Positions 16,646 through 45,053 are shown, counted from the first letter of the stretch. The stretch is 64,000 bases of DNA from Clostridia bacterium (GCA_017415485.1 JAFQGP010000115.1:8135-72134); one strand, 5' to 3'. The notes: generated by a model from the letters alone, not told the origin. Numbers and translations: made by a program.

Positions 16646-18163
16646 TCAGTCAAGTGCCTTTCCGTGATATAGATCCTTACCCGTCAGAATGATCTGCTCA
16701 AGATCGTTCAGGTGGTAGAAATAGCGCAGTGTCCTTCCCTTCGGCACGGGTATTCCGCCGTTGTCGTACACCGTTTTCTCAAGCCCCAGCCCCTCTGCAA
16801 AAGAGTGAAGCGAGGCATAATCGTCGATCTTTCCTTGATCCGGGAAGCCGAGAGAGGTATATGTCAGCGGCTTGCCGGGCTCGGCATCGGAATAATCTGC
16901 GGCAATGCAGTAGCCGTCGCCTTCAAAGATGACCTTGATCTGTCTGAAAAGGACGTATCCGCCGCCAAGCGTGTAAACGCCTGTCATTCCGTCATAGAAA
17001 CGCACCGAGGAAAGCGGAATGCGATAGCCGTGGTAGGATGCATATTCGATGCTGACGTCCTGCGTTCTGCGATAAACGAATCCATTAGGCATCTCGCTCG
17101 TCGAAAAGATCAGAAGCGCCTCGGCGCGGTCGCCATCGTCATCGTGATCGTCAAGGTCGAGCACAAGGCGTTCAAGATTCATCGTCAGCACCTTTCCGCC
17201 GTTGTCGTTGAAGGTGATGTCGTAATCCCTTCCCGACTCAAATCCCCTCGCCTTTTCCGAGTCAAAGGGCAGGCAGAGATACCATTTCGGATTGTCGAGC
17301 ATCTTTCCGACACAGCCCGCGGTATCTGCGGGTTCTTGTGCCGTCAGTTCGGCAAATTCGCCGAAGGTAATATTTTTCAGAAGCGCGGGGTCAAAGATCG
17401 CCTCGTAGCCGTCGCAGTCGCGGAAGAAATATCCCACGCTGTCGGCGTTCACGCTTCCCGTCTTCTTGCCGTAAGCGGCAACAAGTCCGCTTCTTTCGGC
17501 ATAGAGCATACTGATTTGGTTTTTTATATCCCCCGATCCGTTTTCAAGGGCATCTATACGCCCGATTGCGGAAAGGAAGGAATCCGAGATCGCGGCTGCA
17601 TCGGCATATTTGCCCTCGGAAAGCAGGAGCATGATCTCGGCATATCCCGCACTCGCATCGCGGAGTGCTTCGGGGAGACCCGTTTCGATAACACCCGTGT
17701 CCACGATCGATTCAAGCAGGGCGATCTCGCGGTCTATCTCGGCAATACGAACGCGCACGTCATCGGTGAGAGACGAATAAAGATGGCAGATCAATTCACC
17801 CACGCCGATCCTTTCGCCGTCTACAACCTGATAATCGGGCGTGCCCGATGATTTTGTGCGGACGGGACTTTCGCTTCTGACTATATAGCCAACCCCGCGG
17901 CGGTATTCCTTTTCGGTAACGTCATAGGCGGGAGTTGTCGTGACGTCGGAGGTGAAGGTCTTTACGGTATGATAACCGAAATAGAGCACCAGCCCCACCG
18001 ATGCGGCGGCAACCGCAATCGTCAGAAGCGCTGAAAAGAGGTAGGAAAAGTCAAAGCCAATCTTTCGCTCTTTCTTCTCATCGGTGCGTCCGCTATTCAC
18101 TTTTGTTATATCCGAACGCCGCGCGGTGGCAAGCGATACTTTATCTTTTCCTTGTTTTTTCAT
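16646..18163 (-). CDS. Membrane-anchored protein with an HlyD-like barrel-sandwich/coiled-coil region; function unknown
   Basis: 505 aa. Basic N-terminus, one TM segment (LFSALLTIAVAAASVGLVLYFGY), then the lipoyl-like motif GYIVRSE...VVDGERIGVGELICHL. Confidence 0.55.
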   Translation of the reverse strand: MKKQGKDKVSLATARRSDITKVNSGRTDEKKERKIGFDFSYLFSALLTIAVAAASVGLVLYFGYHTVKTFTSDVTTTPAYDVTEKEYRRGVGYIVRSESPVRTKSSGTPDYQVVDGERIGVGELICHLYSSLTDDVRVRIAEIDREIALLESIVDTGVIETGLPEALRDASAGYAEIMLLLSEGKYADAAAISDSFLSAIGRIDALENGSGDIKNQISMLYAERSGLVAAYGKKTGSVNADSVGYFFRDCDGYEAIFDPALLKNITFGEFAELTAQEPADTAGCVGKMLDNPKWYLCLPFDSEKARGFESGRDYDITFNDNGGKVLTMNLERLVLDLDDHDDDGDRAEALLIFSTSEMPNGFVYRRTQDVSIEYASYHGYRIPLSSVRFYDGMTGVYTLGGGYVLFRQIKVIFEGDGYCIAADYSDAEPGKPLTYTSLGFPDQGKIDDYASLHSFAEGLGLEKTVYDNGGIPVPKGRTLRYFYHLNDLEQIILTGKDLYHGKALD

Positions 18164-32028: not shown

Positions 32029-32423
32029 AGTGCGAACATAGACGCACTCGGTGTCCCCTCATCACCCGCTACGTCAGAACCCCAAAAACGCGCAAGCGCG
32101 TTTCCGGGAACCCGACGGCTGGAGCTTCTCCCAGGAGAAGCCTAAGGAAAGCTGTCGCTTTGAGCTAAATATTTCTCTGTTAGAGAAATGCTAAATTTTC
32201 GCTATGCAAAAGCTAAATACGCGCTTTGCGCGAGCTAAATATTCCGCCAAAGCGGAATGCAAAGGTAGAAATTTGCCAAGGCAAATTTCAATTTCATTTA
32301 ATTAATGATACGAATATTAGACAATACCAAACGAAGCTCACAGTAACCCCAGGCTTCTCCTGGAAGAAGCTCCCTCCGCAGAGGGTGATGAGGGGACACC
32401 CAGAAAGCTTTGTTCGCACTTGC
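32029..32423. repeat. Long palindromic intergenic element E4 (E2 arm family) with a central GCTAAAT hairpin train
   Basis: The arms GGTGTCCCCTCATCACCCGC...GGAGCTTCTCCCAGGAGAAGCC pair with their reverse complement at 32345-32423. The core at 32162-32292 has 5 hairpins separated by GCTAAAT. It is about 90% identical to E6. Confidence 0.9.
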
Positions 32424-33905: not shown

Positions 33906-33934
33906 TTCTGTCCTTTCCGCAAATACAGACTTTG

Positions 33935-34154
33935 TCCTCCTCATCCACCACTGCCGTGGTCCCCCTTCCCCGCTGGGGAAGGCTTGTTGAGCGAGTGCTG
34001 ACATTGACTGTATGGGGTGATTTTGCAGTGCTTTTAGAAACGCTGGTAAATGCTCAATACTATTGCACTATACGATGTTCATAAGATCAAGTGAGACTAT
34101 AATTTAGCCTTCCCCAGCGGGGAAGGGGGACCACGGCAGTGGTGGATGAGGAGG
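33935..34154. repeat. Palindromic intergenic element E5 (same arm architecture as E2/E4/E6, different hairpin sequences)
   Basis: TCCTCCTCATCCACCACTGCCGTGGTCCCCCTTCCCCGCTGGGGAAGGC (33935-33983) pairs with its reverse complement at 34107-34154. Confidence 0.85.
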
Positions 34155-34347
34155 ACATTATCGCAGCAAATTGTATTCAGAAATCAAGTTGTAATGTAAT
34201 ATCGTTATAATTCTATCACAATTCCCCGAAATATGCAATAGAAATTTCAAAAGAGGTGCGTAAGTATGCAAAAAAATCTTTACAAGAGGGAAAAAATGGT
34301 GTATAATTATTCTGTATAAATATAAAATAATATTTTGAGGTGATAAT

Positions 34348-34918: not shown

Positions 34919-35285
34919 GCAAGTGCGAACAAAGCTTTCTGGGTGTCCCCTCATCACCCGCTACGTCAGAACCCCAAAAACGCGCAAGCGCGTTTCCGGG
35001 AACCCGACGGCGGGAGCTTCTCCCAGGAGAAGCCTAGGGAGTCTAACGCCTTGAGCTAAATATTTCTCTCTTAGAGAAATGCTAAATTTTTGCTATGCAA
35101 AAGCTAAATTCGCGCTTTGCGCGAGCTAAATATTCCGCTAAAGCGGAATGCAAAGGTAGAAATTTGCCAATGCAAATTTCAATTTAATAAATAATTCGAA
35201 GATTCGAGAATTCCAAACGAAGCTCACAGTAACCCCAGGCTTCTCCTGGGAGAAGCTCCCGCCGCAGCGGGTGATGAGGGGACAC
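34919..35285. repeat. Long palindromic intergenic element E6 (near-copy of E4, same orientation)
   Basis: Same arms as E4, and the same GCTAAAT hairpin train at 35053-35183. Confidence 0.9.
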
Positions 35286-35352
35286 CGTTTGTGCCCAATG
35301 AACACAAGTGAATATTCACTTTAACGATAAAAATTAATCAAGGAGTCCCAAA

Positions 35353-37692: not shown

Positions 37693-38532
37693 ATGAGAGA
37701 TAATTACGACATTTTGAAGACCGAGGGCAGAAACCCTCGCACAATGGACATTGATAAGCTTTCCTCACTCGAAATGGTGCGCCTGATAAATCAGGAGAAC
37801 CGAGCCGTTGAGGACGGCATCGATGAGGCACTCCCCGAGATTGCGGCGGCTATTGATATGATAAGCGAAGCCATCGAGGCGGGGGGCCACGTCATTTATA
37901 TCGGCTGCGGCACTTCGGGCAGACTCGGCATCGTCGATGCCTCCGAATGCCCGCCCACCTTTGGCGTTGATTATGATCTTTTCCGCGGCGTTATCGCGGG
38001 CGGCAAGGAAGCCGTTTTCCGCGCGACCGAGAACGCCGAGGACAGCGAGGAAAAGGGTATGGCCGCCATCGAAGCCGACGGCGCGGCCAGAGGCGACGTT
38101 GTAGTCGGACTTTCCGCGTCGGGACGCGCGCCCTTCGTCATCGGCGCACTCAAAAAGGCAAAAGAACTCGGCTGCAAGACGATCTCCGTAACCTGCAACC
38201 CCGGCTCGCTTATGGAAAACTGCGCTGATATTGCCGTTTCGGTTTACGTCGGCCCCGAGGTAATTTCGGGCTCCACAAGACTCAAAGCCGGCACGGCACA
38301 GAAACTGATACTTAATATGTTCTCCACCTGCGCGATGATAAAGACGGGCAAAGTGCGCTCGAACCTCATGGTAAACGTCCGCCCGACCAACGAAAAGCTC
38401 GTTGAACGCGCGACACGCATCATTATGCAACTTTCCGACGCCGACAGAGAGACCGCCGAAAGACTGCTTGCGGAGTACGGCGAGGTGCCCGCGGCGCTGG
38501 ATGCGTATGAAAGTGCAAAAGGCAAAATGTAA
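37693..38532 (+). CDS. murQ: N-acetylmuramic acid 6-phosphate etherase
   Basis: Start at MRDNYDILKTEGRNPRTMDID. SIS domain GCGTSGRLG. The ATG lies 2 nt after the upstream stop. Confidence 0.9.
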   Translation: MRDNYDILKTEGRNPRTMDIDKLSSLEMVRLINQENRAVEDGIDEALPEIAAAIDMISEAIEAGGHVIYIGCGTSGRLGIVDASECPPTFGVDYDLFRGVIAGGKEAVFRATENAEDSEEKGMAAIEADGAARGDVVVGLSASGRAPFVIGALKKAKELGCKTISVTCNPGSLMENCADIAVSVYVGPEVISGSTRLKAGTAQKLILNMFSTCAMIKTGKVRSNLMVNVRPTNEKLVERATRIIMQLSDADRETAERLLAEYGEVPAALDAYESAKGKM

Positions 38533-38844
38533 AATGCAAAATGTAGGTGAATTTTCTCGCTTCGCTCAAAAATTTTCATTTGAATACAAGCAGCTTAAAG
38601 TTTTGATCGAACTTTTTCAAAAGTTCGCAGAGCTCGAGACAGCGTCTCGATTCAATGCAAAAGCTTCAGCTTTTGCCTCCGTGCTTCAAAATGGCGAAGC
38701 TTCGCTTCGACATTTTGGACAGAGTCAATACTTCCCGATTGTAGGGAAGTGCAGCTCTTGCGGTTTTCCGAAGGAAAATGGAGGCGTAAGCCGAGAAGCA
38801 AGAGTTGCAACTTGCCGTAGGCAAGTATTTGCGCTCTGTCACCC
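38521..38844. repeat. Structured repeat H2 (left module, copy A)
   Basis: It begins with (C/T)AAAATG x3 across the murQ stop. Positions 38549-38844 are homologous to 42879-43101, and the module ends GCGCTCTGTCACCC. It carries extra hairpins inserted at 38755-38830. Confidence 0.85.
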
Positions 38845-38904
38845 TTTGCTGAATAAAATTATTTAGCAAATTGGCTTTACATCTCTCTATTTTGGAGAAT
38901 CCCT

Positions 38905-39114
38905 ATGAAAAAGAACCTTATCTGGAACATTATCTTAATAATCGGCATCATCCCTTTCATACTTCCGTTCGCTTTCGGCATATACAAAATTTCGATCGAA
39001 AGCTGGACGATGTTCGATTGGCTCGTTATGTACTCGTACATTTTTTGGCCCACTTATATCGTCGGCGCGGTAGTTATCGCGATTTCGATCATTGGAAGAT
39101 TCATAAAAAAGTGA
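38905..39114 (+). CDS. Small hydrophobic membrane protein (69 aa), the AT-rich cargo of element copy A
   Basis: MKKNLIWNIILIIGIIPFILPFAF..., with 2-3 TM segments. AT-rich codon usage unlike its neighbours. The stop lies inside the first hairpin of H3. Confidence 0.5.
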   Translation: MKKNLIWNIILIIGIIPFILPFAFGIYKISIESWTMFDWLVMYSYIFWPTYIVGAVVIAISIIGRFIKK

Positions 39115-39275
39115 AGGAGCAAAACCTCCCCGCGGGGAGGTTTTACTCCTTCCAAACAGCCTGCGGGGCGCAGTCTGTTTGAAGCGCAAGGGAATTTCGC
39201 CCTCTGCGGAGGGCGACTTAAGGCTCTGCCTTAAGAAACCGCAACCTTTTGAAAAAGGTTGACCAAAACTTTGAT
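39111..39275. repeat. Structured repeat H3 (right module, copy A)
   Basis: GTGAAGGAGCAAAACCTCCCCGCGGGGAGGTTTTACTCCTTC... contains five hairpins and is homologous to 44837-45001 with compensatory stem changes. Confidence 0.9.
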
Positions 39276-39295
39276 CTTTTTTGTTAGTTGGTAAA

Positions 39296-40630
39296 ATGAA
39301 AACACAATTTCAAGCTAAAATTGAAGAGATAACCGCCTCCGCGATCCCGATGCATATGCCGGGGCATAAGCGCAACACAGCGCTGCTCGGCGACGATCTT
39401 CCCTACTCCGTTGACCTCACCGAGATCGACGGCGCGGACGATCTGCACGATCCCGAGGAAGGCGGCATTATCGGCTCGCTCTGCGAAAGATTTGCCTCGC
39501 TTTACGGCGCAAGATCGGCGCATCCCCTCGTGAACGGCTCGACCTGCGGCATCCTTGCGGGCATCCGAACGCTGACCAAGCCGAACGATTCCGTCATCGT
39601 CGCGCGCAACTGCCACAAATCGGTCTGGCACGCGATCGAGATCTGTCGCCTCAATCCCACCTGCATCCTCCCGCCCATCACCCCGGAGCACGGCATCTGC
39701 GGCGCGATCACGGCTGAGGCAGTCGAAGACGCATTTGTGCTCTCGGGCGGCGCGACTTGCGTGATCCTCACCTCGCCTACATACGAGGGCGTGATCTCGG
39801 ATATCGACGCGATTGCGGAAGTATGCAAAAAGTACAATGCCGCGCTCTTCGTCGATGCCGCTCACGGCGCACACCTCGGATTTTCGAAACACTTCCCCGA
39901 CTTCCCGCGAGGCGCAGATATCGCCGTGACAAGTCTGCACAAGACCCTCCCCGCGCTGACGCAGACCGCGCTCGGACTCGTTTTCAACGATAAATATTCC
40001 TCCGCCTACGCGCGCAATCTCGGCATCTTCGAAACGAGCAGTCCTTCCTATATATTAATGAACTCGATCGCAAAATGCGCCGATATCCTTTCGGACTGCC
40101 GCGAGATGTTCGATAATTACCGCGCGATGCTCGATGACTTTTACGCCTCGACAAAACCGCAAATGCTCTCGCTCATCAAAACCGATGACATCGGCAAGAT
40201 TTCGATCTCAACGAGAAATACGACCTTCACCGGCAGCTCTATCGCAGATGCTTTGCGTAACAGATTCCGCATCGAGCCTGAAATGGTGCATTCGGATTAT
40301 CTCCTCTGCATGACCTCGATCTGCGACACCTCGGAGAATCTTTTCGCCCTCTCTCGCGCGATCATGGAGCTTGACGGGGAGGCTGAATGTTCGGAAGGCA
40401 GAACTTATCCCTCCTTCATCACCGAGCTGCCGCCCGTAGAGATCCCGCTTACCGACGCGGTCTGGCTCGATCTTCCCGACGGCGGCGAGGTCTCAAACGC
40501 CTACGTTTGGGTCTATCCCCCCGGCGTTCCCCTGCTTCTGCCCGGCGAAAGAGTCACCGAGGAAATAAAAAATCACCTCGAAATGCTGAAAAATTCGGGG
40601 ATTTCGCCAAAAATCATCAAAACCTCTTGA
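39296..40630 (+). CDS. PLP-dependent Orn/Lys/Arg decarboxylase-family protein
   Basis: Start at MKTQFQ (ATG 39296). IPMHMPGHKR is the family hallmark, and SLHKTLP provides the PLP lysine. Confidence 0.8.
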   Translation: MKTQFQAKIEEITASAIPMHMPGHKRNTALLGDDLPYSVDLTEIDGADDLHDPEEGGIIGSLCERFASLYGARSAHPLVNGSTCGILAGIRTLTKPNDSVIVARNCHKSVWHAIEICRLNPTCILPPITPEHGICGAITAEAVEDAFVLSGGATCVILTSPTYEGVISDIDAIAEVCKKYNAALFVDAAHGAHLGFSKHFPDFPRGADIAVTSLHKTLPALTQTALGLVFNDKYSSAYARNLGIFETSSPSYILMNSIAKCADILSDCREMFDNYRAMLDDFYASTKPQMLSLIKTDDIGKISISTRNTTFTGSSIADALRNRFRIEPEMVHSDYLLCMTSICDTSENLFALSRAIMELDGEAECSEGRTYPSFITELPPVEIPLTDAVWLDLPDGGEVSNAYVWVYPPGVPLLLPGERVTEEIKNHLEMLKNSGISPKIIKTS

Positions 40631-40695
40631 CAAATGCGCCAAAATCATTTATACTATATAGTGCATATTTAATAATCGAAAGGTGGAATTTTATT

Positions 40696-40842
40696 ATGAA
40701 GAGAATTCGTACTATCAATACTCGTGACCTCAAGGCTTCCGTTAAGAACGGCGGATGCGGCGAGTGCCAGACCTCCTGCCAGTCCGCTTGCAAGACCTCT
40801 TGCGGTGTTGCTAACCAGGCTTGCGAGAAAAAGGCAAAGTAA
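40696..40842 (+). CDS. scfA: SCIFF (six-cysteines-in-forty-five) ranthipeptide precursor
   Basis: 48 aa: MKRIRTINTRDLKASVKNGGCGECQTSCQSACKTSCGVANQACEKKAK. AGGTGG RBS. It was embedded in a longer track ORF. Confidence 0.92.
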   Translation: MKRIRTINTRDLKASVKNGGCGECQTSCQSACKTSCGVANQACEKKAK

Positions 40843-40844
40843 GT

Positions 40845-40879
40845 AAAATAAGCCGCCGCAAATAGCGGCGGCTTATTTT
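40845..40879 (+). terminator. Terminator/attenuator hairpin immediately after scfA
   Basis: AAAATAAGCCGCCG-caaata-GCGGCGGCTTATTTT. Confidence 0.75.
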
Positions 40880-40880
40880 G

Positions 40881-41090
40881 CGATATAGATCCTTGCGGAT
40901 CTGTGATATACGCAGAGCGTGCGATATACCTTCGGCACGATATGCCCCTTCGGGGCGTGATTTCACGTTCGCCTTCGGCGAACATATCGTATCGCGCTTT
41001 GCACGATATATCGTACTGTTTGCCAAAGGCAAACAGTATATCGTATGAGCATAGCGAATATATCGTGTTTACTAAATAAACGAGGTTAAC
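40881..41090. repeat. Hairpin-train element H4 (word CGATAT / ATATCG, overall palindromic)
   Basis: About 9 GC hairpins (gatccttgcggatc, gccccttcggggc, gttcgccttcggcgaac, actgtttgccaaaggcaaacagt ...). The spacer is (G)CGATAT(A) in the left half and ATATCGT in the right half. The centre is cgtgatttcacg. Confidence 0.85.
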
Positions 41091-41092
41091 CG

Positions 41093-41464
41093 ATGAATAA
41101 TATCACTATACGCGAATTAGCAGTAGAATTGACCGTTGAAATTACGCAAATATGCGATAATATCAAAGGAAGAAGCGTTTTCATAAATCAAATTTTGAGA
41201 TCCTGTTCTTCCATCGGAGCAAATTCCGCAGAAGCCAAATATGCACAAAGTTCCGCAGACTTCATTCACAAATTGGAAATCTCACTCAAAGAATGCTATG
41301 AAACCGATTATTGGCTTGAAATCCTTTATAAAACCAATTCAATGGATAAAGAAACATATATAAGATTGTTAAATAAATGCGGTTCTATTCGCAGAAAGCT
41401 TATTGCCTCCATAACAACGGCAAAAGCAAATTCAGAACAGCAATCCGGAGGTACAACAAAATGA
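41093..41464 (+). CDS. Four-helix-bundle protein (23S rRNA intervening-sequence protein family, PF05635/TIGR02436)
   Basis: 123 aa. Contains ...QILRSCSSIGANSAEAKYAQSSADFIHKLEISLKECYETDYWLEIL. AT-rich. Its stop overlaps the scfB ATG (ATGA). Confidence 0.85.
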   Translation: MNNITIRELAVELTVEITQICDNIKGRSVFINQILRSCSSIGANSAEAKYAQSSADFIHKLEISLKECYETDYWLEILYKTNSMDKETYIRLLNKCGSIRRKLIASITTAKANSEQQSGGTTK

Positions 41465-42843
41465 TCCATTCCTATAAACTTGGCGGTTACAATATCGTCC
41501 TTGACGTCGGCTCGGGCGCGGTGCACGCGGTTGATGATCTTGCCTATGACGTCATAAATCTCTACGAAACCAAGTCGGCAGACGAGATCGTCTCGGTCTG
41601 CCTTGAAAAATTCGCCTCCGAAGGTATCACCGAAGAGGACATCCGCGACACGATCTCCGACGTTGAAGAGCTCAAACAGAGCGGCAAACTTTACGCCGAG
41701 GATATCTATGCGCCCCTCGTCGGCAAGCTCAAGAACAATTCCAACATCGTCAAGGCACTCTGCCTGCACGTCGCGCACACCTGCAACCTCAACTGCGAAT
41801 ACTGCTTCGCGGCACAGGGTCGATTCCACGGCGAACGCGCCCTGATGTCATTTGAGGTCGGCAAGCGCGCGCTTGATTTCCTTGTTGAAAACTCGGGAAC
41901 CCGCCACAATCTTGAAGTCGACTTCTTCGGCGGCGAGCCGCTGATGAACTGGCAGGTCGTCAAGGATCTCGTTGCCTACGCGCGCTCGATCGAGGAAGCC
42001 GCAGGCAAGCATTTCCGCTTCACGCTGACGACAAACGGCGTGCTGATCGACGACGACGTCATTGATTTTGCCAACAAAGAGATGGACAACGTCGTTCTCT
42101 CGCTCGACGGCAGACGCCACGTGCACGACAACCTCCGCAAAACTGTGAACGGTCAGGGCAGCTATGACCTGATCCTTCCGAAGTTCAAGGAATTCGTCAC
42201 CCGCCGCGGCGACAAGGGCTACTATATGCGCGGTACATACACCAAGTTCAACACCGATTTCTGCTCCGACATCATCCACATGGCTGACGAAGGCTTTACC
42301 GAGCTTTCGATGGAGCCCGTAGTCTGCCCTCCCGGCGACCCCTACGCACTCGGCGACGAGGATCTGCCCGTGCTTTACGATCAGTATGAAAAGCTCGCCT
42401 TTGAGATGATGGACCGCAAGAAGCGCGGCAAGCCGATCACCTTCTATCACTATATGCTCGACCTTGAGGGCGGCCCCTGCATCTACAAGAGAATTTCCGG
42501 CTGCGGCTCGGGCACCGAGTATATGGCTGTCACCCCTTGGGGCGACCTTTACCCCTGCCATCAGTTCGTCGGCGACGAAAAATACCTCCTCGGCGACATC
42601 TGGAAGGGCGTAACGAACGACGCCATCCGCGACGAATTCCGCTCCTGCTCGGCATATTCGAGAGAGGAATGCCGCGACTGCTGGGCCAGACTCTACTGCT
42701 CCGGCGGCTGCGCCGCGAACTCCTACCACGCAACCGGAAGCGTAAACGGCGTTTATGAGTACGGATGTAAGCTGTTCAAGAAACGAATCGAGTGCGCGAT
42801 CATGCTGAAGGTCGCGGAATCCCTCGAAAACGAAGAAGAATAA
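41461..42843 (+). CDS. scfB: SCIFF radical SAM/SPASM maturase
   Basis: Start at MIHSYKLGGYNIVLDVGSGAVHAVDD. CNLNCEYC radical-SAM motif and a Cys-rich SPASM C-terminus (CRDCWARLYCSGGCAANS). Confidence 0.92.
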   Translation: MIHSYKLGGYNIVLDVGSGAVHAVDDLAYDVINLYETKSADEIVSVCLEKFASEGITEEDIRDTISDVEELKQSGKLYAEDIYAPLVGKLKNNSNIVKALCLHVAHTCNLNCEYCFAAQGRFHGERALMSFEVGKRALDFLVENSGTRHNLEVDFFGGEPLMNWQVVKDLVAYARSIEEAAGKHFRFTLTTNGVLIDDDVIDFANKEMDNVVLSLDGRRHVHDNLRKTVNGQGSYDLILPKFKEFVTRRGDKGYYMRGTYTKFNTDFCSDIIHMADEGFTELSMEPVVCPPGDPYALGDEDLPVLYDQYEKLAFEMMDRKKRGKPITFYHYMLDLEGGPCIYKRISGCGSGTEYMAVTPWGDLYPCHQFVGDEKYLLGDIWKGVTNDAIRDEFRSCSAYSREECRDCWARLYCSGGCAANSYHATGSVNGVYEYGCKLFKKRIECAIMLKVAESLENEEE

Positions 42844-43101
42844 GTTGCTAGTTGCTAGACGCTAGTTGCTAGTTGAAGGTTAATTTCCGCCCTGATCGGG
42901 CGGAAATTTTCATTCTAATTAAAGAGCAGGAAAGTTTTCGTCCACCTTTTTCAAAAGGTGGCGGAGCACGAGGCAGAGCCTCGGACTAATGCGAAAGCTT
43001 CAGCTTTCGCTTCTGCGCTTCAAAATGACGAAGCTCTGCTTCGGCATTTTGGACAGAGTCAACACTTCCCGAATGTAGGGAAGTGTTGCGCTCTGTCACC
43101 C
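42844..43101. repeat. Structured repeat H5 (left module, copy B)
   Basis: It begins with GTTGCTA-type heptamers x5 directly after the scfB stop, continues with sequence homologous to 38549-38844, and ends GCGCTCTGTCACCC. Confidence 0.9.
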
Positions 43102-43121
43102 CTTATTATTTAATATTCAAA

Positions 43122-43164
43122 GGCACACTTTTCGGTAAAAGCCGATTGGTGTGCCAACTTTTTT
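43122..43164 (+). terminator. Rho-independent terminator (plus-strand T-tail)
   Basis: GGCACAC...GTGTGCC followed by TTTTTT. Confidence 0.65.
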
Positions 43165-43489
43165 ATTCAAGTGAATTCAGATATACTTCAAGCAGTTGCT
43201 TAGCAGTTTCGCGATTCTTCTCAGGGAGTAAATCAACTCGTTCGGCAAGTGTTGCGCCGATTGGCACAATTATCTGATCTTCAACAAAAATATCGTTCGG
43301 AGTAATGCCCAACGCCTCGCATATTCTAAGCACACTCTCGATGCGCATATTAACGCTTCCTCTTTCGATATCAGCGTAAGTGCGATCAGAAAGTCCCGCC
43401 TCCTCCGCAACCTGTGCCTGCGTAAGCCCTTTTTGTTTTCTTATGGCATACAATTTATTTCCTATTTCCATCAAATCAAAAACAAGCAT
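43163..43489 (-). CDS. Small XRE-family HTH repressor-like protein
   Basis: 108 aa. HTH is LYAIRKQKGLTQAQVAEEAGLSDRTYADIERG. AT-rich. It is divergent from a consensus promoter. Confidence 0.8.
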   Translation of the reverse strand: MLVFDLMEIGNKLYAIRKQKGLTQAQVAEEAGLSDRTYADIERGSVNMRIESVLRICEALGITPNDIFVEDQIIVPIGATLAERVDLLPEKNRETAKQLLEVYLNSLE

Positions 43490-43537
43490 CTTAATTCCCC
43501 TTTTTATTATATATAGGAATTATAGCACCATTTTATC

Positions 43538-43566
43538 TTGACAAAAAGGAGTTTCAGTGCTATAAT
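43538..43566 (+). promoter_or_regulatory. Perfect consensus sigma-70 promoter with a flanking inverted repeat (candidate operator)
   Basis: TTGACA (43538-43543), N17, TATAAT (43561-43566). The inverted repeat TTATAGCAC (43519-43527) / GTGCTATAA (43556-43564) overlaps the -10 element. Confidence 0.7.
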
Positions 43567-43608
43567 ATAGGAAGTAAGATTCTTATTTGTTTTCAAGGAG
43601 GTATTACA

Positions 43609-43803
43609 ATGAAAAAATATGTTCTTAATGAATCTACAGGTACGCTACACATTCTCGGTTATTGTACACATTCGACACATAAGTTTGACAATGCAATTAC
43701 ATTCGAAACAGAACAAGAAGCATACAAATTTGCTGGCAAGCATATTAAGCTTTGCAAGCTATGTGAAAGAAAAAAAGAAGCAATCTTAAAAGAACAAAAC
43801 TAA
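43609..43803 (+). CDS. Small Cys/His-containing protein (64 aa), possible zinc-binding
   Basis: AGGAGG RBS. Contains LHILGYCTHSTH ... CKLCERKK. AT-rich. I recognise no family. Confidence 0.5.
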   Translation: MKKYVLNESTGTLHILGYCTHSTHKFDNAITFETEQEAYKFAGKHIKLCKLCERKKEAILKEQN

Positions 43804-43831
43804 TTATGCATTAAAGAAAGGAATATAATCC

Positions 43832-44563
43832 ATGAAAAAATTTATTGCAATATTATTAGCGGTAATTATGTGTTTTTCCCTAGTTTCATGCGGAAAGAAA
43901 GTGGCTTTTGAATTAACACAAAATGCATTTTTTGAGATAAGCAAGTCTGTAGATATTTTGAAGCAGATCAGCAATGACATTATTAGCGCGTGGACGATAG
44001 GTATTTATGATGAATCAACATTAAAACACTATGGTGATGGATTTGATTGGTTATGTGAAAACGTTTCATTATCAAGAGATGATATGCTTGATGGATTAGC
44101 ATATTATAAAAGTCTTGGTATTCAACCCGAATACGTAGAAATTTTATGTGATCCGGAATTAGGATTATATAATGATTATTATGAATACCATAAAGAAGCA
44201 GTACGAAAACTTTATGATATGTATTTCTATACCAGTTATGAGGAAACAGGTATATTAAATGTTTACGATAAAGTGTTCACAGGTTGTGTAATGTTGGTCG
44301 TATACTCTTACGAGGCGAACGGAAAGCTCAGCGAAATCGAACAATCTCTTACATCCGCTGAAACAAAAATCAAAGAATTGAGCAATAAGCATTCAAACTA
44401 TGAGCATTACGAAAACATAAAAGAATATTATTCTACTGCTAGGACTATGTATAATTTCTGCAAATTGCCCACTGGAACATTAGAGCAAGCTAAGAGCAAC
44501 ATAAACGATTATAAAAACACAGCAGATTCGTGTTATAACAGTATGTATTACTTTTTCCAGTAG
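43832..44563 (+). CDS. Lipoprotein of unknown function (243 aa)
   Basis: Lipobox FSLVSCG. AT-rich, helical, Tyr/Glu-rich. Confidence 0.6.
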   Translation: MKKFIAILLAVIMCFSLVSCGKKVAFELTQNAFFEISKSVDILKQISNDIISAWTIGIYDESTLKHYGDGFDWLCENVSLSRDDMLDGLAYYKSLGIQPEYVEILCDPELGLYNDYYEYHKEAVRKLYDMYFYTSYEETGILNVYDKVFTGCVMLVVYSYEANGKLSEIEQSLTSAETKIKELSNKHSNYEHYENIKEYYSTARTMYNFCKLPTGTLEQAKSNINDYKNTADSCYNSMYYFFQ

Positions 44564-44599
44564 ACACTGCAACAAAATTTTCATTCTATGCAGTAAAGT

Positions 44600-44836
44600 T
44601 GACGATATATCAAGAGCCCTCCCGCTTGCGGGAGGGTTGGGAGGGGAGTCAGCGGCGCGCGAAATTTGAGCACCAAAACCAAACTCAAAGCGAAATATAA
44701 TAAAAATGTGAAAATCCGCCGCGGCGGATTTTTCCTTTACGTTCCGCGGTGCGGAACATATCGCATCGCGAAGCGATATATCGTATCCGCAGGATATATC
44801 GCGCCGAAGGCATATCGTGCGCCCTGCGGGCGCAGG
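44600..44836. repeat. Hairpin-train element H6a (ATATCG word)
   Basis: ccctcccgcttgcgggaggg and aaatccgccgcggcggattt, followed by gttccgcggtgcggaac-ATATCGC-atcgcgaagcgat-ATATCGT-atccgcaggat-ATATCGC-gccgaaggc-ATATCGT-gcgccctgcgggcgc. Confidence 0.85.
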
Positions 44837-45001
44837 GTGAAGGAGCAAAAATCTCCCGCAAGGGGAGATTTTACTCCTTCCGAACCGTCGACGGGGCGTC
44901 GCCGGTTCGAAGCACAAGGAAATTTCGCGCTCTGCGGAGCGCGACTTAAGGCTCTGCCTTAAGAAACCGCAAACTTTTGAAAAAGTTTGATCAAAACTTT
45001 T
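44837..45001. repeat. Structured repeat H6b (right module, copy B)
   Basis: Collinear with 39111-39275. Linkers are identical (TTACTCCTTCC, CTTAAGGCTCTGCCTTAAGAAACCGCAA) and the stems differ by paired substitutions. Confidence 0.9.
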
Positions 45002-45024
45002 CCGCTGATATAGTTAAATTGTTC

Positions 45025-45053
45025 TTGACATCCCCGCGCGGGCGTGGTACAAT
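45025..45053 (+). promoter_or_regulatory. Sigma-70-type promoter for the glycan cluster
   Basis: TTGACA (45025-45030), N17, TACAAT (45048-45053). Confidence 0.55.

Follow-up and report, generated by a model that had tools for sequence, protein, structure and literature searches.

Multi-hairpin repeats border two sites of variable gene content in gut Clostridia

In a 64-kb stretch of DNA from a Clostridia bacterium (GCA_017415485.1, JAFQGP010000115.1:8135-72134; the whole stretch, 64,000 nucleotides [nt], is hereafter called the window), two small gene blocks are each enclosed by a left and a right repeat module, LA and RA around copy A and LB and RB around copy B. Sequence comparison shows that all four modules belong to one dispersed, non-coding repeat family of uncultured Oscillospirales-like gut Clostridia, the units of which we call arms. 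In the genus in question, inverted arms edge two intergenic spacers, murQ|decarboxylase (site A) and scfB|gfo (site B), and the DNA between them is a hot spot at which small, self-promoted, AT-rich accessory genes turn over by gain, loss, and replacement. On balance we favor, if only slightly, the reading that the arms belong to the REP/BIME/NIME kind of mosaic repeat, are recombinogenic, and border the two hot spots, where cassettes and arm bodies are exchanged by recombination.

When the modules were searched against the window by blastn, LA (38535-38758) matched LB (42867-43092) with 77.5% identity over 227 nt (E value, 2e-45), and RA (39111-39272) matched RB (44837-45000) with 86% identity over 164 nt (E value, 2e-43). 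Families D1, D2, D14, and D18 of an ungapped repeat finder agree with these pairs, and the motifs GCGCTCTGTCACCC (38831-38844 and 43088-43101) and GTGAAGGAGCAAAA (39111-39124 and 44837-44850) were located at the module ends. An initial annotation of this DNA, which had reported paired modules in the same order and orientation at two places, was therefore correct on this point. It had also regarded left and right as two distinct modules, which is not what the alignments gave. LB matched the reverse complement of RA (65.6% identity, 163 nt; E value, 4e-11) and that of RB (63.8% identity, 196 nt; E value, 4e-8), LA matched the reverse complement of RB (66.7% identity, 144 nt; E value, 1e-9), and all hairpins of the four modules fell in register in a four-way alignment with the R modules inverted. 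Thus, each L..R pair is a long imperfect terminal inverted repeat (TIR), and the left and right modules represent a single family of ~170-nt arms in opposite orientation. The divergence between L and R exceeds that between LA and LB and between RA and RB (blastn). The inverted matches TCACCC and GGGTGA, noticed earlier at the cargo edges, are present, but they are simply the inner tips of the inverted arms. The left module, formerly read as one unit, lumps together a heptamer tandem repeat, a terminator-like hairpin, and the arm proper, which begins at AAAGTTTT; the first two also occur in an arm-free relative (L210, below), where the heptamer repeats are degenerate. The four arms of the window are as follows.

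38597 to 38844, plus strand: arm LA, L-type; hairpin 1 at AAAGTTTTGATC, then hairpins 2 to 5; inner end ...GCGCTCTGTCACCC
39111 to 39272, minus strand: arm RA, R-type; inner end GTGAAGGAGC, outer end ...GACCAAAACTTT, 24 nt before the decarboxylase ATG
42931 to 43101, plus strand: arm LB, L-type; 90.8% identical to the inverted right arm of a related locus, L214
44835 to 45000, minus strand: arm RB, R-type; inner end GGGTGAAGGAGC, outer end ...GATCAAAACTTT

An arm is a train of five hairpins, about 165 to 250 nt long. Its outer end carries the conserved AAAGTTTTGRTC followed by hairpin 1; four further hairpins lead to the inner end, ...TCAC(CC), which is common to L-type and R-type arms. Beyond hairpin 3, the hairpins form a mosaic of subfamilies, and in some subfamilies the shared modules continue outside hairpin 1, past the supposed terminus. 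A 32-nt pattern for hairpin 1 has exactly four matches in the window (38597+, 39272-, 42931+, and 45000-), all within 6.5 kb, and had none in 100 shuffles of the window even with three mismatches permitted. All four arm stretches beat their shuffles in folding, with z scores of -6.2, -10.7, -5.7, and -7.9 for LA, LB, RA, and RB. Of 40 pairs predicted in 15 full-length arms from six genomes, 27 had compensatory changes on both sides. In hairpin 1, the two pairs that vary, compared in 114 arms, were AU/CG/GC in 66/29/17 and GC/AU/CG in 55/29/27 cases, with GU in 1 of 228; here the invariant flanks are imposed by the search pattern, and the N positions alone are informative. In these alignments, hairpin pairing is kept by compensatory change.

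Hairpin modules are also shuffled within arms, since a 76-nt two-hairpin sub-module sits at differing spots in orthologous arms: it lies in hairpin 5 of LA (38755-38830) and in hairpin 3 of the orthologous arm of a close relative (L020, 2619-2694; 87% identity). In a Ruminiclostridium metagenome-assembled genome (MAG; L017, 2351-2500), amplification of the hairpin-2 unit (GGGGTCCAGGGGCAGAGCCCCTGGC) has placed several tandem copies 3' of hairpin 1. Arms also give rise to long spurious open reading frames (ORFs), at 44666-44962, 44749-44949, and 38871-39182 in the window and at 2336-2968 in locus L111, whose translations match one another in tblastn; arm-derived ORFs of this sort are probably mis-annotated as hypothetical proteins in MAGs.

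The family extends well beyond the window. A scan of species-representative genomes, in 8-kb chunks, yielded at least 119 loci with the hairpin-1 pattern, and the hosts of the listed loci are gut or rumen MAGs labeled Oscillospiraceae, Ruminococcus, Acutalibacteraceae, Anaerotruncus, Clostridia, and similar. The sequences used for comparison are nearly all contigs from MAGs or metagenomes, and such contigs break at repeats or collapse them. A profile hidden Markov model (HMM) of hairpins 1 and 2 recognized 156 arms among the matches listed. Between MAGs, arms are conserved over about 60 to 210 nt, and one MAG contains four ~95% identical copies inside tandem arrays of other modules. Arms occur solo, in arrays, and preferentially as convergent inverted doublets of a foldback type, similar to REPINs or MITEs: among the matches listed, neighboring arms less than 600 nt apart were convergent in 11 cases, divergent in 2, and tandem in 4, against a random expectation of 1:1:2. 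A single arm was seen in 91 loci among the matches listed. This number is too high, since detection by the HMM hinges on hairpin 1, and the right arm of L214, in which that hairpin has diverged, escaped it. Family-wide, most detected arms are solo, which weakens the original interpretation; convergent doublets are over-represented.

Compact doublets measure 282 to 555 nt, with halves 61 to 78% alike and no transposase-like ORF inside. The clearest case is L111 (4536-4893), where the argG/argH spacer holds two complete arms, R-type and then L-type, separated by 27 nt of AT spacer, and ten more compact convergent doublets were found in the wider family; such empty doublets have a short AT-rich center. 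A contiguous form in which the left module abuts the right one had been postulated from the window, and it does exist. Other convergent pairs, L043, L058, and L104, are long range and span genes of ordinary GC content.

No transposase or integrase recurs beside the 156 arms; when 239 neighboring ORFs were clustered, housekeeping families alone recurred. Target-site duplications were found neither at the window copies nor at L111, at the ten other doublets, or between the empty sites of L210 and the filled ones, where the junctions are fuzzy, and no target motif for arm insertion emerged from the doublets and the filled/empty comparisons. Neighboring genes on the outer side of arms show no orientation bias (67/67). 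No arm match was obtained by blastn in distant mode against plasmid and phage collections, which indicates that arms are not part of a known mobile replicon, and a pattern scan of IMG/VR gave 2 marginal matches. We found no description of the arm family among the papers searched on MITEs (miniature inverted-repeat transposable elements), REP, or intergenic repeats in Ruminococcaceae/Oscillospiraceae.

We then turned to the two sites in relatives of the window, which were found by exact-protein and homologue look-ups and whose relatedness was judged from few proteins. In the window, copy A holds the gene of a 69-amino-acid (aa) membrane protein (m69), and copy B holds genes for an XRE-family regulator, a 64-aa protein (p64), and a lipoprotein. 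The layouts are given below.

L120 to L129, same species as the window: identical layout at sites A and B
L210 (GCA_017628755.1; ScfB 95%, MurQ 90%, and Gfo 91% identical): site A, 43 nt, without arms or m69; site B, 137 nt, without arms or cargo
L237 (GCA_045537015.1; ScfB 99% identical), site A: L-type arm and a 75-aa m69 homologue overlapping the decarboxylase ATG, without a right arm
L237, site B: R-type-variant arm directly 3' of the scfB stop and a third cargo encoding a 370-aa protein and two helix-turn-helix (HTH) proteins
L020, close relative: site A, as in L237 (left arm, 75-aa m69 homologue, no right arm); site B, contig ends in scfB
L221/L222 (ScfB 95% identical): site A, L-type arm (plus), Imm26 gene, m70, L-type arm (minus); site B, in L222, arm (plus) after scfB and then the contig end
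L226/L230 (ScfB 95% identical): site A, other hairpins, beta-lactamase-like gene, m69, R-type arm (minus); site B, not covered
L214 (ScfB 96% identical): site A, not covered; site B, R-type arm (plus), an 85-aa ORF replacing XRE, p64 (58%), lipoprotein (95%), the same extra hairpins as in the window, L-type arm (minus)

Since L210 is without arms and cargo at both sites, both L-cargo-R blocks behave as indels. Its scfB terminator and gfo promoter are common to the window, which places the insertion of the window between the two; the gene of a four-helix-bundle (4HB) protein found in the window is absent from L210. As had been proposed, the DNA between arms differs among close relatives: three differing cargos occupy scfB|gfo in genomes with 95 to 99% identical ScfB. 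The arm subtype at a given site, in turn, differs between relatives while the cargo persists. The left arms of L214 and L237 have an inner end without TCACCC. The arm orthologous to RA in L226/L230 carries, like RA itself, a rare variant of hairpin 1 together with the GATCTTTTTT flank. The R arm at site A is old, so that its loss in L020 and L237 is as likely as a gain elsewhere; throughout, whether a given change was a gain or a loss is a matter of reconstruction. The site-A accessory genes of the relatives encode an Imm26-domain protein of 364 aa (L221, 2860-3954) and a beta-lactamase-family protein of 572 aa, the gene ending 7 nt before m69 (L226, 2275-3993).

Two further comparisons concern exchange. 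The LB arm of the window (42962-43102) is 90.8% identical to the right arm of L214 (3458-3597), and the R-type arms of the two (44856-45019 and 1736-1903) are 75% identical, on swapped sides. The decarboxylase gene (39295-40490) has 84 to 86% nt identity to its counterpart in L237 (9493-10690) versus 93 to 98% for its neighbors, and this mosaic divergence suggests recombination next to arms. The initial annotation had further proposed that the two copies, as direct repeats, could mediate deletion or inversion of the decarboxylase-scfA-4HB-scfB block; neither was seen in any contig examined, and the block is deeply syntenic. In a metagenome scan with ScfB, the only relatives to appear were at most 72% identical; they kept the decarboxylase-scfA-scfB synteny without arms, a distance too great for these loci to be informative.

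The genes in and around the two blocks were identified as had been predicted: Pfam confirmed a MurQ-like SIS protein, an Orn/Lys/Arg decarboxylase, SCIFF, a 23S_rRNA_IVP four-helix protein, a radical-SAM maturase, an XRE HTH protein, and a Gfo oxidoreductase. The cargo is indeed AT rich (GC content of 0.29 to 0.41 versus 0.55 to 0.64 in flanking genes), and the Pfam scan gave no family for its 69-aa, 64-aa, and 243-aa proteins. The remaining features of the region are listed below.

38510 to 38543, no strand: heptamer tandem repeat AAAATGC x4.9 (TRF), spanning the murQ 3' end and stop codon, just upstream of LA
38755 to 38830, plus strand: nested 76-nt two-hairpin sub-module in LA hairpin 5, missing from LB
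38905 to 39114, plus strand: m69, 69-aa membrane protein with two transmembrane segments; its TGA stop lies within the first bases of RA
42843 to 42875, no strand: heptamer tandem repeat AGTTGCT x4.7 (TRF), directly 3' of the scfB stop codon
42875 to 42915, plus strand: intrinsic-terminator-like hairpin of scfB, AATTTCCGCCC...GGGCGGAAATTTTC; resident, common to arm-free L210
43163 to 43489, minus strand: XRE-family HTH regulator, 108 aa, first cargo-B gene (Pfam HTH_3; E value, 9e-15)
43538 to 43566, plus strand: perfect sigma-70-type promoter, TTGACA-17-TATAAT, of the p64-lipoprotein operon
43609 to 43803, plus strand: p64, 64-aa Cys/His-containing protein of no family; homologues in L214 (58%) and L234
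43832 to 44563, plus strand: lipoprotein, 243 aa, all-helical orphan; 7 homologue clusters; predicted local distance difference test (pLDDT) score, 86
44565 to 44834, plus strand: extra hairpin train on the inner side of RB, made up of the terminator of the lipoprotein (44710-44733), an ATATCG repeat of 18 nt (44758-44815), and a GC hairpin (~44819-44834)
45025 to 45053, plus strand: promoter of the Gfo oxidoreductase gene; resident, common to arm-free L210

The initial annotation had considered that the cargo might be mobile. Homologues of m69 fall into 29 clusters (57 to 94% identity), and all those that can be placed lie at the murQ-decarboxylase locus; m69 is thus not a travelling cargo. 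In the window and in L226, its stop codon is the TGA within the GTGAAGG end of the arm, and the homologue in L020 and L237, which have the left arm and lack the right one, is six residues longer and overlaps the decarboxylase start. A cargo that is syntenic in relatives lacking the modules was thus found in part for copy A.

The XRE-p64-lipoprotein cassette, with its own perfect promoter and terminator, is a discrete unit. Generic HTH matches alone were obtained for the XRE protein in PHROG and PADLOC, p64 has no family in Pfam, PHROG, or PADLOC, and the predicted structure of the lipoprotein, of which there are seven homologue clusters only, has no fold match in PDB. In L234 the lipoprotein cassette directly adjoins an arm of another subtype, and homology to the window begins at 43106, just past TCACCCC. 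In L220 a lipoprotein homologue has the same elements behind it as in the window (terminator, ATATCG train, GC hairpin, and R-type arm), with the arm abutting a Crp-family gene instead of gfo; the window (44712-45000) and L220 (768-1049) are 78% identical there, and homology stops exactly at the outer end of the arm. In L218/L219 an XRE-lipoprotein pair stands without arms, with yebC on one side and another gene on the other.

Several other observations were made in the same DNA. A third AT-rich insertion, at 40845-41464 in the scfA/scfB gap, encodes a 123-aa four-helix-bundle protein (PF05635, 35% GC) behind an "ATATCG" hairpin train; it is present in L237 (97% aa identity) and absent from L210, L020, L222, and L226. 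The ATATCG train scored 40.7 bits against Rfam Gut-1, below the gathering score of 50. An AATGCAA run similar to the heptamer repeats lies 5' of the L111 doublet. A different repeat family is represented by direct copies of ~350 nt at 32047-32400 and 34939-35286, 2.9 kb apart and 90 to 97% identical, each with internal 32-nt inverted repeats (CGGCGGGAGCTTCTCCCAGGAGAAGCC...). Finally, an intergenic foldback of 225 nt (33933-34157) has perfect 52-nt arms (TGTCCTCCTCATCCACC...CCCCGCTGGGGAAGGCT), and a similar long inverted repeat occurs in the alternative cargo region of L237 (~16990-17360).

How arms could act may be pictured as follows. They would serve as portable homology and as structure-prone palindromes causing breaks or template switching; incoming or paralogous arm-carrying DNA would recombine in or next to resident arms, and this would swap the cassette between arms and often the arm bodies too, while the arms themselves would spread through a mechanism acting in trans. 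We infer recombination as the process, with a possible benefit to the host. Several points weigh against such a reading. No recombination event was directly seen, and the history is drawn from a handful of MAG contigs that may be chimeras or may have collapsed repeats. An HMM dependent on hairpin 1 overstates the share of solo arms. No AT-rich excess is found inside arms family-wide (GC, 51.7% on the inner versus 51.5% on the outer side; n = 94), so that the hot-spot role may be local to this genus and not family-wide. Compared with the window, L214 has its arm types exchanged between left and right with the cassette orientation kept, and neither simple homologous exchange nor any one event, be it inversion or exchange, accounts for this swap. 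The cassette and arm of L220 beside a different gene are predicted equally well by a transposon model, and they fit site-specific capture at the doublet center as well as they fit recombination with a resident arm.

According to that model, which we hold to be unlikely, each L-cargo-R unit is a non-autonomous foldback or composite transposon with arms as TIRs and the transposase provided in trans, solo arms and empty doublets being deletion derivatives. The arms form inverted repeats whose outer terminus is conserved, both blocks are traceless in L210, an arm lies directly left of the same cassette in L234, and in L220 the right-hand modules and R-type arm recur with the lipoprotein homologue next to another gene, homology ending exactly at the outer end; MITE pairs straddling integrons and mobilized in trans offer a precedent (PMC3184786). 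However, neither the filled/empty comparisons nor the doublets yielded a target-site duplication, the neighborhoods of arms show no recurrent transposase, the plasmid and phage collections contain no arms, a fixed site may change its arm subtype and keep its cargo, and conserved modules run past the supposed terminus in some subfamilies. Moreover, m69 is strictly syntenic, sometimes with one arm only, and the same XRE-lipoprotein pair is found without arms in L218/L219. The unbiased orientation of neighboring genes, together with the lack of a recurrent transposase and of target-site duplications, argues against a simple transposon, and arms are probably not a self-contained cargo-carrying one. 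The related idea of a mobile shell inherited with its cargo does not fit sites at which the arm subtype changes while the cargo stays, nor the absence of a recurrent transposase or integrase and of target-site duplications. A decidedly unlikely claim, taken as a whole, is that the doublet is the attachment or terminal structure of an undescribed cassette-exchange system of gut Clostridia, in which an enzyme acting in trans would recognize AAAGTTTTGRTC and the hairpin-1 end, or the TCACCC/GGGTGA center, and would insert, excise, or flip promoter-bearing accessory cassettes between arms. Such a system would explain the empty sites, the three cargos at one site, the recurrence of cargo and arm beside another gene, and the swapped arms. 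We regard as very unlikely a loosely integron-like version, in which the inverted doublet is an attachment platform for a site-specific recombinase and cassettes are captured between TCACCC and GGGTGA. It would account for a cargo boundary that falls sharply at the inner ends with either type of arm (as in the window/L234 homology from 43106), for the inner TCAC(CC) common to both arm types, for empty doublets with a short AT-rich center, and for three cargos at scfB|gfo with ScfB 95 to 99% identical. Yet the region and its borders hold no integrase or recombinase, none is recurrent among the neighbors of arms, and the arms are unlike attC; cargo B has its own promoter and terminators, the cassette occurs also without arms, and the left arms of L214 and L237 have no TCACCC at the inner end.

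It is highly doubtful that arms act mainly as RNA, that is, as multi-hairpin elements of 3' or 5' untranslated regions that stabilize, terminate, or insulate transcripts around foreign genes and owe their distribution to selection instead of mobility or recombination. The strongly conserved hairpin pairing speaks for such a role, as does the position of left arms 3' of stop codons and terminators and of right arms 5' of promoters, and REP elements are known mRNA stabilizers (PMC3184786). A small strand asymmetry lends weak support: the arm strand folds 1.9 kcal/mol better than its complement, with 8.2% versus 5.4% GU pairs, and 13 of 15 arms have a conserved T:G pair. Against it, arm orientation is unbiased with respect to neighboring genes, the better-folding strand of the R arms in the window is antisense to every flanking gene, and hairpin 1 covaries nearly purely by Watson-Crick pairs (1 GU in 228). 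Nor are the window arms terminator-like, as they have no T tracts. Rfam holds no family for them, either in an E-value scan of the region, with chance-level matches on the window arms, or in a gathering-threshold scan of 15 related loci, with RNase P and tRNA only. Dispersal, doublets, and subtype replacement would be left unexplained. Finally, the pairing could be coincidental, through a single local duplication of an intergenic segment or through independent solo insertions flanking unrelated genes. The long-range convergent pairs L043, L058, and L104 do enclose ordinary-GC genes, and two convergent pairs arise with a chance of 1/16 under random orientation. We nevertheless find coincidence extremely improbable, given that 8 of 8 arms edging variable cargo in five genomes point inward, that compact convergent doublets are strongly over-represented, and that the four arms of the window all lie within 6.5 kb; the larger divergence of L from R than of LA from LB or RA from RB excludes that a single arm was recently duplicated in one local event. 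Two other candidates were tried and rejected. An IS200/IS605-type end or guide-RNA scaffold does not agree with ends that are symmetric inverted copies and with a region, and arm neighborhoods, free of TnpA/TnpB; no HEARO/omega-type Rfam match was found in the region and 15 related loci. Nor are these attC sites, as each side of the cargo bears a train of five hairpins and the region has no integrase.

Ideas on genome plasticity owe much to intergenic repeats such as the REP/BIME, NIME, Correia, and BOX families. To our knowledge, such families are known almost only from cultured Proteobacteria and streptococci. The arms represent a structurally elaborate family, with 170-nt five-hairpin units and strong covariation but no Rfam entry, confined, among the matches listed, to uncultured Oscillospirales of animal guts. 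In one genus they mark the turnover of accessory genes (the XRE-lipoprotein cassette, the Imm26 protein, and the beta-lactamase-like protein) among core genes that are 95 to 99% identical. In MAGs they break contigs and generate spurious ORFs; they also mark strain-variable loci and offer a lead to a mobilizing or recombining activity. Interest would be much higher if a dedicated enzyme did recognize them.

Among known systems, the REP/BIME/REPIN repeats of Enterobacteria and Pseudomonas resemble the arms in being intergenic, non-coding, hairpin-forming, and multi-copy, in occurring singly, in mosaic clusters, and as inverted doublets with compensatory pairing, and in having neither target-site duplications nor a gene inside. 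Unlike a REP, which is a single palindrome of ~35 nt, an arm has at least five hairpins and ~170 nt; its 5' motif is AAAGTTTTGRTC, not GTAG, its hosts are Clostridia, and no RAYT (Y1 HUH transposase) lies beside any of the 156 arms whose neighbors were examined. NIME/dRS3 arrays and minimal mobile elements share with the arms mosaic subfamily arrays that vary in number and type at syntenic sites (PMC1797815). In NIME arrays the flanking genes are more diverged between strains, and the arrays were proposed as substrates for recombination with acquired DNA (PMC1797815); arms likewise flank genes exchanged or more diverged between strains, with alternative small gene sets at one syntenic site. 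They differ from NIME in that the 20-bp dRS3 punctuation (ATTCCC-N8-GGGAAT) appears in none of the arms inspected, in being long structured hairpin trains, and in having no known associated phage recombinase, and natural transformation is not established for their hosts. With MITEs and their composites (Correia/CREE; IMU straddling integrons; PMC3184786) they share TIRs around a transposase-free core, long stem-loops, filled and empty sites in relatives, pairs that can bracket cargo genes, and repeat ends fused with ORF ends, as in the m69 stop codon. MITEs are set apart from them by target-site duplications, of which none was found with arms; the arm repeats are ~170 nt long, ~65% alike, internally modular, and in many cases single, and no related autonomous insertion sequence was found among the neighbors of 156 arms, in plasmids, or in phages (2 marginal matches in IMG/VR). 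Unlike integrons, the region has no integrase and no attC architecture, the arms are inverted on both sides of the cargo, and the cargo has its own promoter and terminator; as with integron cassettes and attC, structured imperfect palindromes accompany exchangeable genes that are small, often AT rich, and located at one fixed place in the chromosome. The family fails the sequence-level definitions of each of these systems; by analogy, its mode of working would be that of REP/BIME/REPIN and NIME arrays or, where arms bear cargo, that of MITE-flanked composites.

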